Shown here: positions 2,156-39,376 of the stretch, piece after piece | How positions within the stretch are numbered: position 1 is the first letter of the stretch | Layout of the letters: every line of letters begins with the position of its first letter | Virus record (IMG/VR): IMGVR_UViG_3300020149_000002 | Span: 1 to 39,403 of that record | Direction: 5' to 3' (one strand) | DNA: 39,403 nucleotides | Source: a virus | Lineage: Duplodnaviria; Caudoviricetes | Program-made: the position numbers and the translations under genes | The notes under the pieces: model-generated | What the model saw: the letters and a program-made list of their open reading frames with translations, nothing else | Told to the model about the DNA's origin: nothing | The model's database searches: none

Positions 2156-2811
2156 CTAACCCCCCTCCTGTTCGAGAGGTAGATCAGAGCGGTAAAAGCG
2201 GCGAACACTGTCGGTAATGCAATGTATGATCGCCAATGAGAGATGAAATGGAACAGAATGAAGAACGAAGTCGCGACAACCAGTATTAGAAAGAAAACTG
2301 CAATTTCCTTAGGTTTAAATTTATCGTTCAAAAAATGAGGAGGGCGTATTATCGAAGACCTCCCCCAACCAAAACGATACATAATATATGCAATCAATAG
2401 AGCACACGAACTTGTGCTTAATTGCATTAGATATGCCTGGTATCCAATGGATTGCTGAGTGACATCCGATGAAACAAGTCCAACGGACCTATATATGATA
2501 TAGATAGCGAAACTCAGCGCGCCATAAACCAAATAGACAAGCGAAAGAACTATTGATGCTTTCATTCTTACCTTGATGATTGCTCTAAAAAACAAAATAT
2601 ACAGACACATCTGCACCACTAAATCGACTACTCCTCCATCTAACTCCACTCTTATTACATAAGAGAGCAAAGTCACAACAAAACTCATTAGCAGAACTTC
2701 CTTGTAGTACTCAAAAAAAGGGAACCGATAGCATCGGAACATCAGTGCTAGGATAGCAAACGTATCCAGCATTCCCAACGTTAAAAACAACAAAAAATCC
2801 AATTTCAACAT
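2152..2811 (-). CDS. Multi-pass (about 6-7 TM) membrane protein, AgrC-sensor-like but with no kinase domain
   Basis: 219 aa, hydrophobic throughout; ends right after the last TM helix; GGAGGTGA SD; overlaps the agrB start. Confidence 0.7.
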   Translation of the reverse strand: MLKLDFLLFLTLGMLDTFAILALMFRCYRFPFFEYYKEVLLMSFVVTLLSYVIRVELDGGVVDLVVQMCLYILFFRAIIKVRMKASIVLSLVYLVYGALSFAIYIIYRSVGLVSSDVTQQSIGYQAYLMQLSTSSCALLIAYIMYRFGWGRSSIIRPPHFLNDKFKPKEIAVFFLILVVATSFFILFHFISHWRSYIALPTVFAAFTALIYLSNRRGVS

Positions 2812-3171: not shown

Positions 3172-3861
3172 CTATGCAGTTGGCTGTCCCGACGCCTTGC
3201 GCAGCTCGTCGGCCAGCCGGTGAAACTCGTCTTGTGCCTCTTTGCTATTAGTAGCCTCGTAGGCCGCTGACAAAAAGGCGATCACCTTATTGGCATCATC
3301 CGCTTTAAGCATGTACTCACCTCCAATCAAAACATCATAGCGCTGCTGCACTCTGGCGACCACGTCCGACCACGTCTTACCCCACTTGGCTAAATATGCG
3401 ATGGGGTCCGTGTGCGTTGTGCCGCCGAGGTATCGGGTCACATCGGCATGTGCCCACAACGTGCCTGAGCCGTCGGCTTTGGCCACCGTGACACCGAGCT
3501 GCCGCGCTGACAGGTAATACGCAGCTCGGTAGCACCATGCGTCGTATGAGCGTTCAAACTCGGCTTTCGTTTGCGCCGAGCACAGCTCAAGATGGATGAA
3601 CCGCGGGTTCGCTTTGGCTCCCGCCCCGTACGCGATATAATTCGGATTGGCGACCTGAACGATCTCGCCGGGATCGATGAACTCATGCACAAAAGCGTCC
3701 TGCCAGTGCGCCACTTCATAGGCCCGCTCGCTGGTCGCCGTATCGTTCGTATTCGCCGTTTGATGCATCACCACGCCTTCCCATTGGCCGACTCCGCGGC
3801 GGTACGGGATGCGCGGCAAGTTCGGAATCCAATTGACGGTAACATTAGGCGTTGGTGTCAT
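3172..3861 (-). CDS. Endolysin, N-acetylmuramoyl-L-alanine amidase (Amidase_2 type)
   Basis: VVMHQTAN, AFVH, IHLELC and H.DP Zn-amidase motifs; directly after the holin. Confidence 0.9.
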   Translation of the reverse strand: MTPTPNVTVNWIPNLPRIPYRRGVGQWEGVVMHQTANTNDTATSERAYEVAHWQDAFVHEFIDPGEIVQVANPNYIAYGAGAKANPRFIHLELCSAQTKAEFERSYDAWCYRAAYYLSARQLGVTVAKADGSGTLWAHADVTRYLGGTTHTDPIAYLAKWGKTWSDVVARVQQRYDVLIGGEYMLKADDANKVIAFLSAAYEATNSKEAQDEFHRLADELRKASGQPTA

Positions 3862-4324
3862 TGGTGGTATCTCCTTTCCGCTGCAGCTGCTGCAAGAATT
3901 GCTTGATCGCGTTGGGCAACGGGACGCCCATCAGGTCGAGGTTTTCGACCACGCTCAACCCCTCACGAGCGATATAAAAATACATGGCCAGCGAGCGGAA
4001 CACCGGCGCGTCGCCGCCGACAAAGCGGTCCAGCATGACAGCCAGCGCCACCACGGCCATAACCACGCCTTTGCGGATGCCACCCCAGAACATCGTTTCC
4101 GAGTTGACAGTCCTTGACCGGATCGCGCCCGCGAGGCCGGTTGCATAGTCGAGCACCATCAGAAAAATGAGCAGCTGCAGCGCTGTGTCCCAGCCGCCCA
4201 GGTATGCGCTGGCAATTGTTGCAGCCACGGCGGCCACGGCGCCGAATCCCGCCTCTTTCCCGGTGTCGCCCACCGCGGCAGTCATCAAATTAAGAGCAAG
4301 GTATTTTACATTCATTATTATCAC
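3845..4324 (-). CDS. Phage holin (toxin-secretion/phage-lysis holin family)
   Basis: LGGWD..L..L..LMVLDY.TG...S..M..G..RK...E.LS..ENL..MG.P.P signature. Confidence 0.9.
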   Translation of the reverse strand: MIIMNVKYLALNLMTAAVGDTGKEAGFGAVAAVAATIASAYLGGWDTALQLLIFLMVLDYATGLAGAIRSRTVNSETMFWGGIRKGVVMAVVALAVMLDRFVGGDAPVFRSLAMYFYIAREGLSVVENLDLMGVPLPNAIKQFLQQLQRKGDTTNDTNA

Positions 4325-24253: not shown

Positions 24254-24799
24254 TCAGGCTTTAAATCGCTTGAGAATGGTATCCATAGAGTCCTGCTCTA
24301 TGCCAATGTAGCGGAGTGTCACCCGTTCGCTGGAGTGGTTGAAGAATTGCATCAATCGCCCGATGTCCTTCTGCGTCTGCTGGTAAAACAGCAGGCCGAA
24401 CGTTTTGCGAAGCGTGTGACACCCGATGTCATCCAGTCCGAACTCATCCGCAATTTGCTGCATGATCTTGTAAGCCATGCTGCGGCCGATCGGGCGGTTT
24501 GTGCCTTGCCTGCTTTTGATCAGGTACTCGTGATGGCGCCGGCCCTTGATAAACTCTTGCAGTTCGCGTTTAAGCTCCGGTGTTATAAGGATGCGCTTTT
24601 CCTTCTTGGTCTTCTTTTCCCGGAGCGATATGTGCGTTCCGGCTACATCGCGGACCCGCAAACGTAAAATATCGCTGATGCGAAGCCCGGTGTTGATGCC
24701 GAGCAGGAACAGGATGTAGTTGCGCGCATTCGTTTCTCGAAGGTGATCCTTGATGTCACCCAGAATTTCCTTGTCTCGGATGGGCTGGACGAAATTCAT
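24254..24799 (-). CDS. Small tyrosine recombinase (catalytic domain only)
   Basis: GLRISD (R), HTLRKT (H-x-x-R), NHSS (H), LRYIG (Y). Confidence 0.93.
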   Translation of the reverse strand: MNFVQPIRDKEILGDIKDHLRETNARNYILFLLGINTGLRISDILRLRVRDVAGTHISLREKKTKKEKRILITPELKRELQEFIKGRRHHEYLIKSRQGTNRPIGRSMAYKIMQQIADEFGLDDIGCHTLRKTFGLLFYQQTQKDIGRLMQFFNHSSERVTLRYIGIEQDSMDTILKRFKA

Positions 24800-25527: not shown

Positions 25528-26052
25528 TTAGAGCAGAAACAGACTGTTCCTCAAGTCTTCCGATATTTTTTGCTGCGCACGGCTCACGACCTTCGAAACG
25601 GCCCCTTTTGTAATCTTGAGCAGCGCCGCAATTTCGGAATGAGACAGGCATTGTCCGTGTGCGAGTATGTAGCATTCTCTCTCCTGATCACTTAGCCTGG
25701 ACAAAGCATCCTCGATTTGGAACCGCTGATAATCCGTCAAGCCGGATCGTGATGACGAATGCGTACTTTGCACGTAGGATTGCATAAGCATCGGATCGAC
25801 AAGCTTTTCGCGCTGGTAGCCGGCCCGGCGCTCGATGCCGCGTTTGTTGCCCGGCCGCCTTGCGGTCATCATCCATTCGATGCAGTAACTGACATCTGAC
25901 ATCATCTCGCTTATCGTGATACTTGTGGCGAAATCATTCTCTTTTTCTGCCCGCAATTTAGCCGCTTTCAATCTCCTGTAGGTTCTACGGTATGATTTTC
26001 GGAGATCTGCGATGCTCAGGAGCCAAGGCTTTCCGGGTTTCAGGTCTTCCAT
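25528..26052 (-). CDS. xpf: Xpf-like phage sigma factor / late-gene activator
   Basis: M.SD..Y..EW....R.PG..R.I.RR..YQR...DP plus a sigma region-4 HTH, as recalled for PBSX Xpf. Confidence 0.8.
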   Translation of the reverse strand: MEDLKPGKPWLLSIADLRKSYRRTYRRLKAAKLRAEKENDFATSITISEMMSDVSYCIEWMMTARRPGNKRGIERRAGYQREKLVDPMLMQSYVQSTHSSSRSGLTDYQRFQIEDALSRLSDQERECYILAHGQCLSHSEIAALLKITKGAVSKVVSRAQQKISEDLRNSLFLL

Positions 26053-29344: not shown

Positions 29345-30190
29345 TCACTCAAACTCCTTTTCCAACTGGTCAAGGTAATTGATTTGCTGTTGTTGCTTGC
29401 TGCTTCGCCGATTTCCAAGGGCGACTGCTACGTGCGGCACCGCGGCAGTTATGGTTTCGTTCGGCAATTTACTTCGTTCCCATTCGCTGTAACAGCGAGG
29501 GATGCAGTACACGACGGATCTTATCTCGTCTCGCGCATGCTTTGGCTTATATTCGGCGAATGACTTATCGATGGCTGCCCGGATGATATCCAGCGGTATG
29601 CCGTCGATGACCATTTTTTTTATTTCCGCCAGATCGGCTGGGCTTACGCTGAACCCCTTGCCCCTCCGCGCAAGAAAATGTTGTTCGACCTCCAACGCAA
29701 TTTGCATCACGTCCGAATCATTAACAACAACATCTTTTAAGACCTTAATATCTTTATTAGATGGCTCATTTATGACCTCTTGATGGTCCAGTTCTGCACC
29801 TTCTGACCCCTCGGGATGGCTCATTTTCGAGCTATCCGCGCTAGGTGATGGCTCATTTATGACCTTACCGTTAATGCCGAATTTTTTGCTTTTTCTGACC
29901 GATAAAATCAAGCCGTAAGGGGCTCGCTTAGTGGTTATGTAGTCGTAACCCTGGAGCACCTTGATCCACCTTTTCACTGTTGACCGATTAACCCCGTAGT
30001 TGGCGGCTATGCTGTCGATCTCTATAGGCATGCCGCCCAAGACGATACCCCAGGTTTCCCCATCTCGTTCGGTTTCCCTTGTCGTGGCCCCGATACACCA
30101 GAGGAACAACCATATGGCATTGCCGATCTGGCTGTAATGCCTTGGTTCAAGCAAGCCGGAGAAAATCGGTATCGGATGGCTGTCTGACAA
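29345..30190 (-). CDS. Phage replication initiator protein
   Basis: N-terminal winged HTH, linker carrying iteron repeats, DnaD-like C-terminus; upstream of loader and helicase. Confidence 0.8.
   Translation of the reverse strand: MSDSHPIPIFSGLLEPRHYSQIGNAIWLFLWCIGATTRETERDGETWGIVLGGMPIEIDSIAANYGVNRSTVKRWIKVLQGYDYITTKRAPYGLILSVRKSKKFGINGKVINEPSPSADSSKMSHPEGSEGAELDHQEVINEPSNKDIKVLKDVVVNDSDVMQIALEVEQHFLARRGKGFSVSPADLAEIKKMVIDGIPLDIIRAAIDKSFAEYKPKHARDEIRSVVYCIPRCYSEWERSKLPNETITAAVPHVAVALGNRRSSKQQQQINYLDQLEKEFE
29720..29865. repeat. Replication origin: iterons plus AT-rich tract inside the initiator gene
   Basis: GATGGCTCATTTATGACCT exact at 29760-29778 and 29847-29865; variants at 29782-29801 and 29815-29833; AT-rich 29720-29760. 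Confidence 0.75.
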
Positions 30191-34880: not shown

Positions 34881-34957
34881 GGATATCCGCGACCCGCGCC
34901 GGTTGGCGCTAGGTTTCGGCCGGTGTCCCTCCGGCCATCATCAGGCGGTTATTTTCC
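34881..34957 (-). ncRNA. Type I hammerhead ribozyme
   Basis: Stem I CCGC (34948-45)/GCGG (34890-87); core CUGAUGA (34944-38) plus an extra U; stem II GGCCGG-AGGGACA-CCGGCC; GAAA (34917-14); stem III ACCU-A-GCGCC-AACC-GGCGC-GGGU; GUC cleavage triplet, cut between 34891 and 34890. Confidence 0.85.
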
Positions 34958-35140: not shown

Positions 35141-35211
35141 TTCGTATCCCCTCTCGCGCTCCAATGGCGCTGGTTTCGTTACTTGCAGGTTTTGCTATCA
35201 GGACTGTCGAA

Positions 35212-35518
35212 TCGTATCAAGGCAGAGCCCTCCGGGAAGAAGGGAGTGATGTGCCTTCTTTTATTTTTTTTTACTACTACGACGATAAATTTTCCGACCG
35301 CTTGAAGTCGGCGATGAACGATCGCGGCATAGGGCCCCAAACCCTTTCCGCGATGCTGGGCGTCTCGCCAGTGACCGTAAATCGTTGGCTGGACGGTAAA
35401 TTCGATCCAAGACTCAAAAATCTGCGAAACATCAGCAACGTACTGGATGTTTCGAATGATTACCTGTTAGGCAAAGCTTGATCTAAAAACCATCCCGGAG
35501 GGCTCTGCCTTGATACGA
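35212..35518. repeat. Perfect 26-bp inverted repeats flanking a 255-bp gene cassette
   Basis: TCGTATCAAGGCAGAGCCCTCCGGGA at 35212-35237 and its exact reverse complement at 35493-35518. Confidence 0.95.
35251..35481 (+). CDS. XRE-family HTH regulator inside the inverted repeats (76 aa)
   Basis: FSDRLK.AM..RGI....L...LGVS..TV.RW..GK..P....L..I..VL.VS.DYLLG; GTG start after GAGGGAG. Confidence 0.85.
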   Translation: MPSFIFFYYYDDKFSDRLKSAMNDRGIGPQTLSAMLGVSPVTVNRWLDGKFDPRLKNLRNISNVLDVSNDYLLGKA

Positions 35519-35534
35519 CTCTCCTCAATCCACC

Positions 35535-36860: not shown

Positions 36861-37130
36861 CTACGGTTGTCCTACTTCACTGTTATTCAGGTGATTCAAC
36901 GCATCGATACCGAGTTTAAAACTAGGATTTTCTTCAAAAAAAATAATTTCATTTGCTTCACACCCGAGCGCTGCAGCTAGTCGTGGTATCTCACAAACTC
37001 TAATTTCTTGCGGGTGATCTTCCCACTTTGCGTAGGTGCTCGAGTGTATACCTAGCGCCTTGGCCAACTCTTTCTTACTTTTCTTTAGGTAGGCTCTCCA
37101 CTCTCTTAAAGTGCGTCCGTATGATGTCAT
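36861..37130 (-). CDS. Cro-like XRE HTH protein
   Basis: TLREWR.....S..ELA..LGI..STY..WE..P; divergent from the repressor. Confidence 0.85.
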   Translation of the reverse strand: MTSYGRTLREWRAYLKKSKKELAKALGIHSSTYAKWEDHPQEIRVCEIPRLAAALGCEANEIIFFEENPSFKLGIDALNHLNNSEVGQP

Positions 37131-37230
37131 GGCGCATCCTCCTTTCGATGTCCTAAGTATAAGCTAGTTTTAAACTCGGCGTCAAGTTAGTTTTTGACTA
37201 TTCCTCGCTAAAAATCAAAGTATAAACTAG
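36911..37230. promoter_or_regulatory. Immunity region: 15-bp palindromic operators (CTAGTTT-N-AAACTAG-like) and lytic promoter
   Basis: CGAGTTTAAAACTAG (36911-25) with an exact inverse at 37164-78; variants at 37153-67, 37187-201, 37216-30; minus-strand promoter TTGACG (37185-80)-18 bp-TATACT (37161-56). Confidence 0.75.
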
Positions 37231-37913: not shown

Positions 37914-37930
37914 GCAAGGAGGAATATAAT

Positions 37931-39376
37931 ATGCAGATACTTGGTTATATACGAGTGTCGACTGAGGAACAAGCAAATGACGGAAACTCGCTCTTTGAAC
38001 AAAGGGAAAGACTGCAGGCTTACTGCAAAGCGATGTTATGGCCCGAGCCTATATTTTTTATTGACGACGGCTATAGCGCCAAAGATACAAATCGCCCTGA
38101 CCTCCAGAAACTCCTCAAAATAGTAGGTGAAAATAAAACAGAATTAAAGATTATGGTTACCAAGCTCGATCGTATTAGTCGCAAACTTTTAGACCTGCTA
38201 ACAATGATCGAACTTTTTCAAAATCATGGAGCTTCTTTCGTGTCCGTATCTGAACAATTCGACTCAAATACGCCTGCGGGGAGACTTACATTGCAAGTTC
38301 TCGGCGCCGTCGCTGAATTCGAACGAGAACGGACAAGAGAACGCGTAATAGATAACATGGATTCTATCGCCAAAAACACAAACAAAGCGCTAACTCGTCC
38401 CTGCTTTGGATACGATATAGTCGACGGAGAATATCAAATTAATAATTCAGAGCAAAAATTCGGAGACATGATGCTTGATCTGGCGGAATCAGGAGACGGT
38501 TATCGTATGATAGCAAAAAAACTCAATGACGCTGGATCGAGAACCAAAAAAGGGAAGCCGTGGGATCAAAAAAATGTAAAGCGTTGGCTGACAGGAATCG
38601 AAACGATAGCCGGTATAAAGATAAGAAACAAGCGAGATACGCAAAACGGAAAAGTTGTGTTTCGTGATGAAAAGGACTGGATTGTTGTTGAAAACAACCA
38701 CCCGGCTCTCGTATCGCTTGAAAGACTTCTGAAAATCAGAGATGTCCTAAAATCGCGTTCTCGCGCTCACAAACATGCAGAGAATGAGTCCTATCTCTTA
38801 ACAGGTTTAGTCAAGTGCAAATTTTGCGGCGGGAATATGAAAGGAGCAACTAGTAGAAATAAAAATAATGGCAAAGAATACATGTACCATAGATACATAT
38901 GTTCAGCGTATGTTAGCGGATATGGTTGCCGATATCATGCAGTTCACAGGGATGATTTAGAATTAAAAATCATCGACTTGGTAAAAGAAATTGCAGAAGG
39001 GTCTAACGCCGATCTAGTAATTAAAGCTACTGTGAACCAATCTGTGGATGAAAGAATTAAAGAAATTAATACTCAATTAGCGAAAATAAGCAAACGTATA
39101 GTAAAACAAATTCAGGCTCATGCAGACGACTTAATAAGCGGAGCTGACTTGAAAATGGCATCTAATATAGCTGAATCAGAACGGGTAAAACTCAATGAAG
39201 AACTTAAAAAGTTAACAAAACACGAAGAGGCCCCACACAAGGTGAGGCAAACTGCCACAACTATATTAGGTGATATTTCTGGTGTCGACAGAATAAAAGC
39301 TAAAAATGCTCTACGATTATTGTTTGAGCGAATAGAAATTGAAAACGAATCAATAAGCGTAGTTGTTAAAGGATAG
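37931..39376 (+). CDS. Large serine recombinase (integrase)
   Basis: YIRVSTEEQ catalytic Ser, DDGYSA..RP.L, KLDRISR, recombinase domain, Zn ribbon C..CG...Y.C, coiled coil; AAGGAGG SD before ATG 37931. Confidence 0.97.
   Translation: MQILGYIRVSTEEQANDGNSLFEQRERLQAYCKAMLWPEPIFFIDDGYSAKDTNRPDLQKLLKIVGENKTELKIMVTKLDRISRKLLDLLTMIELFQNHGASFVSVSEQFDSNTPAGRLTLQVLGAVAEFERERTRERVIDNMDSIAKNTNKALTRPCFGYDIVDGEYQINNSEQKFGDMMLDLAESGDGYRMIAKKLNDAGSRTKKGKPWDQKNVKRWLTGIETIAGIKIRNKRDTQNGKVVFRDEKDWIVVENNHPALVSLERLLKIRDVLKSRSRAHKHAENESYLLTGLVKCKFCGGNMKGATSRNKNNGKEYMYHRYICSAYVSGYGCRYHAVHRDDLELKIIDLVKEIAEGSNADLVIKATVNQSVDERIKEINTQLAKISKRIVKQIQAHADDLISGADLKMASNIAESERVKLNEELKKLTKHEEAPHKVRQTATTILGDISGVDRIKAKNALRLLFERIEIENESISVVVKG

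Follow-up and report, generated by a model that had tools for sequence, protein, structure and literature searches.

The question raised by this locus is whether a small regulator gene enclosed by perfect inverted repeats in a temperate phage is an invertible DNA switch, or whether the repeats serve another function, for instance as pairing partners in RNA. The window, i.e. the whole stretch of DNA analysed here, is a 39.4-kb virus record (39,403 nucleotides) corresponding to a temperate phage which possesses a serine integrase (37928-39376), a cI-like repressor and cro at its right end, and an early operon on the minus strand. From its relatives, we infer that its host belongs to the Paenibacillaceae. 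A sequence-only reading of this DNA had described exact 26-bp inverted repeats around no more than an SD and an XRE gene of 76 aa which runs antisense to the early operon, and this description proved accurate. The left arm (35212..35237, plus strand), which would form the 5' leader of the XRE RNA, and the right arm (35493..35518, plus strand), which would form its 3' trailer and is the arm that the minus-strand early transcript meets first, are exact inverted repeats (26/26 matches), both of them conserved and covarying among relatives; when extended (35209-35237 / 35493-35521), they reach 29 nt with one mismatch. They constitute the longest exact inverted repeat of the window at a spacing of at most 1 kb, well beyond the 11-16 bp reached in 100 dinucleotide shuffles, and a search allowing up to 6 mismatches found the arm nowhere else in the window. 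Besides short spacers, the arms contain an SD region ending in an invariant GTGAT (35240..35250, plus strand, recognized from the sequence and the family alignment) and an ORF (35251..35481, plus strand) running from a GTG start at 35251 to a TGA stop at 35481. It encodes an XRE/HTH_3 protein of a distinct subfamily (Pfam, PHROGs) with a Phe/Tyr-rich N-terminus, the poly-Phe stretch being encoded by a pyrimidine tract (35254..35272, plus strand) with a T9 run at 35264-35272. The neighbouring genes lie on the minus strand on both sides.

Exact-arm and single-protein scans of viral contigs gave no match, and close relatives of the window protein were restricted to its own cluster; the family was reached only by exhaustive profile searches, which delineated a subfamily whose N-terminus is poly-Phe. 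When viral, genome and metagenome contigs were scanned with profiles and patterns, 98 hits were obtained, corresponding to 60 distinct loci in prophage-like DNA from Paenibacillaceae and Clostridia. An arm pair (score of at least 15) was found at 56 of these 60 loci, window included, against none of 21 distinct loci carrying XRE genes outside the subfamily (best score 9). Among the four armless loci, one contig stops within the gene (L132), two are joined to host DNA (L126 and L134) and the last one (L119, 2430-3106) appears to be a decayed copy, with no right arm near the gene and a frame which runs on. The arms fall into two types, one in Paenibacillaceae and the other in Clostridia, which their protein names suggest to be Anaerotignum-like; by eye, the inner halves of the two types seem homologous. 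The gene is present in 8 of 401 Paenibacillaceae-level genomes, at a single locus in each genome searched; a 400-genome sample of the phylum contained no new family member, a genus sample returned the centre genome only, and the arm pattern at 2 mismatches was too loose to be used over the 401 genomes. Rfam gave only chance-level matches, both around the window cassette and in four related loci. In relatives also, the cassette lies antisense within early operons, and the genes which flank it vary among phages. Among openly available papers, a literature search returned no description of the cassette, the region treated in PMC4909266 being unrelated; supplements of inverton surveys may list these arms.

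Two loci (L016, 2924-3600; L017, 2930-3600) carry two tandem cassettes, each with its own sigma-H-type promoter and arm variant. Decayed copies include L104 (2501-2755), with an internal deletion and arms which are intact and compensated, and L114, with the same internal stop as L011. In L009, L010 and L015, inspection by eye showed short look-alike stretches, often SD-containing, outside the promoter-plus-cassette unit at both ends, which gives the impression of a gain by microhomology. Two further long inverted repeats, and no others, were seen among about 205 loci: a 76-nt-spaced pair in L087 and a 31-bp pair in L102 (3323-3353 / 3855-3885). The latter lies within the cro and cI paralogues of L102, divergent genes with nearly duplicate N-terminal domains, and is an unrelated element.

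The matching of the two arms is maintained in evolution. Of the 20 Paenibacillus-type cassettes, L104 and L115 were set aside; in the other 18, 11 of the 26 arm positions have changed on both sides and 98.9% of the cells are paired, a level reached by none of 500 shuffles, slid controls attaining 38-46%. By our own count, the doubly changed pairs represent about seven independent lineages. Identity amounts to 0.90 in the arms and to 0.45 at third codon positions, and pairing extends to the Clostridia-type arms, which are quite different from those of the Paenibacillus type. In the tandem cassettes, each arm matches its own partner only. Covarying pairing between leader and trailer, by which an mRNA with a 5'-3' long-distance stem can be recognized, was thus observed; covariation alone fits either RNA pairing or gene conversion.

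The position of the promoter provides further information. The TGTCGAA motif that the sequence-only reading had noticed against the left arm is present at 35205-35211, with no gap, and its identification as a 0A-box core (PMC3485338) holds, the motif being conserved in 12 of the 20 Paenibacillus-type cassettes. It would also constitute the -10 element of a predicted sigma-H-type promoter (35187..35211, plus strand), with a -35 element AGGTTTT at 35187-35193 and a perfect 0A box as -10, which a simple promoter scan had missed. Such an overlap is known in C. difficile, where the SigH promoters of spo0A, lplA and ssuA combine AGG, a spacing of 15-17 nt and TGTCGAA (PMC7438776, Table 3), and where these regions bind Spo0A in vitro (PMC3485338). 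The likeness in -35, spacing and -10 is one of sequence, and the cassette promoter differs in being phage-borne and predicted to drive an antisense regulator. TGTCGAA, with a constant spacing to an AGG -35, occurs on the gene-start side of the same 12 of 20 cassettes and never on the far side (0/20), for a background of 12 in 4154 windows of these loci, cassettes included. Six other Paenibacillus-type cassettes have an extended -10 instead, as does the gut type, in which the predicted start falls on the first base of the arm. The promoter motif lies 13-22 nt from the arm in relatives and 0 nt from it in the window; since it abuts the arm there, the sense RNA of the window would start inside the arm. 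In the gut-type locus L130 (about 2765-2800, plus strand) and in other gut-type loci, a second sigma-A-like promoter (TTGCAC or TTGCAT, 17 nt, TACTAT with TG) was noticed by eye right after the right arm, facing against the upstream early genes.

Collectively, we favour the reading that this is a prophage cassette of fixed orientation whose covarying 26-28 bp arms pair the two ends of the XRE RNA into a stem, and we assign it a probability of about one half. This preference follows from the restriction of the arms to the family, from their covariation, from the constant orientation, from the promoter motif just outside the gene-start arm and from the purifying selection on the protein. The fold z, about -8 on either strand, also speaks for a stem. 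The RNA duplex which the sequence-only reading had offered as an alternative to inversion is consistent with both the covariation and the promoter position. In the proposed sequence of events, a sigma-H promoter overlapping a Spo0A box, or an extended -10 sigma-A promoter, would initiate transcription at the first arm or close to it. During transcription, the SD would be held by nearby anti-SD sequences; with the emergence of the second arm, the stem would form, protecting the RNA or marking it for RNase III, and its closure would ease the block on the SD in most relatives. Combined with a start codon that is poor or absent, such control could supply a small, transition-phase dose of the regulator in the lysogen. 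The lytic early mRNA, which is fully antisense, would silence XRE, whose target may be, as the likeliest guess, the phage early promoters.

Several observations weigh against this RNA stem. Gene conversion between inverted repeats, or inversion itself, likewise produces double changes, and the lineages in which they are seen are few. Wobble G-U pairs do not indicate one strand, as they fall mostly on the sense strand in the Paenibacillus type and on the antisense strand in the gut type. All 26 bp of the window arms match, even though the predicted sense RNA starts within the left arm. The outer CGTATC of the arms is invariant, hinting at a protein site. The folding predictions are also divided. 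In the window, the SD is predicted to form a hairpin with the pyrimidine run just downstream, and at 46 of 52 loci, among which one gut clade predominates, the energy needed to open the SD is lower with the second arm than without it. In the window itself, no such effect is predicted (8.6 vs 8.7 kcal/mol), and the mean unpaired probability of the SD in the full RNA is lower rather than higher (0.27 vs 0.35). Because release is absent in the window and the unpaired probability does not rise, SD release is put forward here as a conjecture. A conserved intrinsic terminator at the gene start, plausible in the window, was rejected as the gut type lacks a U-run after the SD hairpin. A more elaborate version of the RNA stem, a new class of phage regulatory module in which a sigma-H/Spo0A promoter would produce a closed-loop mRNA whose stem licenses finished transcripts alone for translation, with a non-AUG start or +1 slippage on the conserved poly-Phe run, so that the prophage would sense both host development and translation and lytic antisense transcription would erase the message, is unlikely as a whole.

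The same stem also folds on the minus strand, and the duplex might act mainly on the lytic early mRNA: it would loop out the antisense copy of the cassette, and RNase III cleavage would process the operon message and free an antisense RNA directed against the XRE mRNA. This is possible, if rather unlikely. The antisense location of the cassette inside early operons, the gut-type mismatches (G-U on the minus strand) and the retention by the window of the full 26 bp, the outer part of which the sense RNA would miss, are all in keeping with it, as is a hammerhead-like motif about 260 nt downstream on the same transcript. Against it, the arms hug the SD and the stop codon and begin where the sense promoter is predicted to start, neither of which is needed by a model centred on the early mRNA, and the wobbles of the Paenibacillus type favour the sense strand. 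The motif in question (window 34885-34950, minus strand) is a core on the early transcript which resembles that of a hammerhead ribozyme: CUGAUGA, one extra U, stem II, GAAAC, stem III, GUC and a short stem I. Its stems covary in Paenibacillus phage Pd_22F (L008), L101 and L203-L205, and Rfam returned no match for it.

The arms could alternatively be DNA sites for a protein (a host factor, or the XRE protein) which loops the cassette or blocks it, their matching being kept by gene conversion. The high conservation of the arms, with their invariant outer segment, and the XRE fold, which is that of operator-binding repressors, would suit this explanation. It is nevertheless improbable, given that the arms have no dyad, that no other copy occurs in the phage and that the two clades combine similar recognition helices with very different arms.

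Inversion, the main proposal of the sequence-only reading, envisaged a heritable ON/OFF switch; a phage or host recombinase would flip the gene so that it is served either by its own promoter or by the early transcript, perhaps only for a short time at induction. Invertons and shufflons are well known, e.g., Hin/Gin/Cin and the C. difficile switches, and a length of 26-28 bp, such as that of the arms, suits recombination sites. The expected presence of both orientations in related prophages was not borne out. Among 51 de-duplicated Clostridia-type loci, 50 are oriented alike (43 with the promoter flank on the left and the other flank on the right, and 7 which could be read or classified from a single side and show the same orientation), and one (L134) is inverted; in the Paenibacillus type, the promoter motif is on the gene-start side of 18 of 20 cassettes and on the far side of none. 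In L134, the right arm is joined to the promoter flank, as inversion would require, but the contig has a coverage of 1.9 and passes, at the poly-Phe tract, into a host AIR-synthase gene; the intact gene has the same KEKEEE codons. L126 has the same junction, and both contigs are probably assembly chimeras; L134 was accordingly set aside as a proof of inversion, and insertion of an IS was rejected for the two, the joined sequence being host DNA. No inversion joint was found in the contigs of runs X1-X4, bearing in mind that assembled contigs drop rare variants, and those of X1 (depth 66) and X2, which may be the source of the window, span both arms unbroken. The dyad symmetry of four arms is no better than in shuffles (fraction at least as high 0.13-0.99).

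The recombinase evidence points in the same direction. The spare enzyme to which the flipping had been ascribed does exist, as a short tyrosine recombinase of 181 aa (24254..24799, minus strand; PF00589, E 6e-19) beside the serine integrase; it was judged to be outside the element, and its link to the cassette did not hold. Of 11 Paenibacillus-type cassette records, 4 encode it, as do 2 of 6 records which the cassette scans did not retrieve. No PF00589 protein was found in 12 Clostridia-type records, of which three are 96-100% complete, and 4 of the 5 tested in this type have a large serine integrase only. Inversion of the cassette is thus not supported and appears quite improbable. Like invertons and shufflons, the cassette is a short segment between inverted repeats of about 26 bp beside a fixed promoter, and it departs from those described in PMC9881135 by its single orientation among relatives, its arms without dyad and the absence of a linked recombinase. 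As invertible regions with no nearby recombinase are reported in the same source, rare action of a host recombinase would, by analogy, still be conceivable. The differing flanking genes and the tandem copies might evoke a non-autonomous mobile cassette (MITE or mobile insertion cassette), mobilized through its terminal inverted repeats by a transposase acting in trans. Such a cassette is very improbable and largely refuted, since the promoter outside the arms always accompanies them, no target duplication is visible by eye at the arm ends, and the arms are found with this XRE only, at one locus per genome searched.

Whatever the role of the arms, the XRE protein itself is under purifying selection, with a median dN/dS of 0.20 (132 pairs, 19 sequences); the Clostridia value of 0.26 (8 pairs) refers to 5 sequences, 34 loci having been dropped by the anchor pattern. 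It matches PF01381 (HTH_3) with an E-value of 8e-8 and 32.6 bits, above the curated cut-off of 23, and its model displays five helices (pLDDT 83.5); both features identify it as a member of the XRE family. Relatives within the subfamily are 41-60% identical. No PDB sequence matched at E 1e-8, and the predicted fold resembles those of C.AhdI, C.BclI, P22 c2 and the N-domains of ImmR and SinR (TM-score about 0.73-0.78), from which XRE differs by its low identity (22-30%) and its poly-Phe N-terminus.

The start of translation is peculiar. The distance from GTGAT to the HTH is in one frame in 16 of 19 Paenibacillus-type copies, which are non-independent (L101 and L102 were read by hand). In this type, an ATG stands at the expected start only in L094, L115 and the frameshifted L011; the other copies have mostly GTC, ATC, GCC, GTT, GCG or GCT, together with an ATG which overlaps the SD out of frame, and L101 has a GTG one codon downstream. 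The window is one base off the usual SD-to-HTH register, at the T9 run, and has a closely spaced in-frame GTG; no length variant of the pyrimidine tract was found in the contigs of runs X1-X4. The stop after the poly-Phe tract results from Phe-Asp/Glu codons. In the Clostridia type, an ATG or GTG start is present in 33 of 37 copies. A universal programmed +1 frameshift would fit most Paenibacillus copies but not the window, L011 or start-less Clostridia copies such as L019. Initiation may rely on a non-AUG codon, on +1 slippage or on a downstream ATG.

By analogy, the closest worked-out parallel to the cassette RNA would be the H. pylori aapA3/IsoA3 type I toxin mRNA, in which SD-sequestering hairpins and a 5'-3' long-distance interaction have been described (PMC6733600). 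Both have a small ORF with its own promoter, an SD between anti-SDs, predicted pairing of the ends and an available antisense transcript. The cassette differs from that system in three respects: its product is an XRE regulator (HTH_3) and not the small hydrophobic toxin expected of a type I toxin-antitoxin system; its stem is a perfect 26-28 bp duplex which ends just before the SD instead of trapping it; and its antisense would be the lytic operon mRNA rather than a dedicated small RNA. Stems that loop out a whole gene are also familiar from rRNA processing, and this would be the feature shared with the cassette. The B. subtilis prophage antisense pairs txpA/RatA and yonT, which are RNase III-controlled (PMC3531473), likewise combine a prophage gene with an overlapping antisense RNA and a duplex long enough for RNase III. 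Compared with the rRNA stems and with these pairs, the cassette duplex is intramolecular and possible on both strands, its cleavage being putative.

The consequence of these results is that a suspected DNA switch becomes a conserved, probably RNA-level module which is testable and common to prophages of Paenibacillaceae and of gut Clostridia. If this RNA stem is confirmed, temperate phages of spore-formers would rely on a transition-phase promoter of the host, and on an mRNA stem joining both ends, to dose a secondary regulator. Copies which keep the frame but have no in-frame start codon lend themselves to natural tests, in Bacillota, of non-AUG initiation or recoding. The cassette also calls for caution with assembly-based inverton finders: perfect 26-bp arms need not imply inversion, and the sole flipped contig is probably an assembly artefact.

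Other features of the window were noted in passing. The replication initiator gene contains three direct repeats of 19 bp (29760-29865), which are likely origin iterons, and a 25-nt imperfect inverted pair (36910-36934 / 37155-37179) around the cro start and the cI-cro promoter region likely corresponds to operators. Finally, a phage-encoded sigma factor (25528-26052, phrog_1190) adjoins the region of the short tyrosine recombinase.
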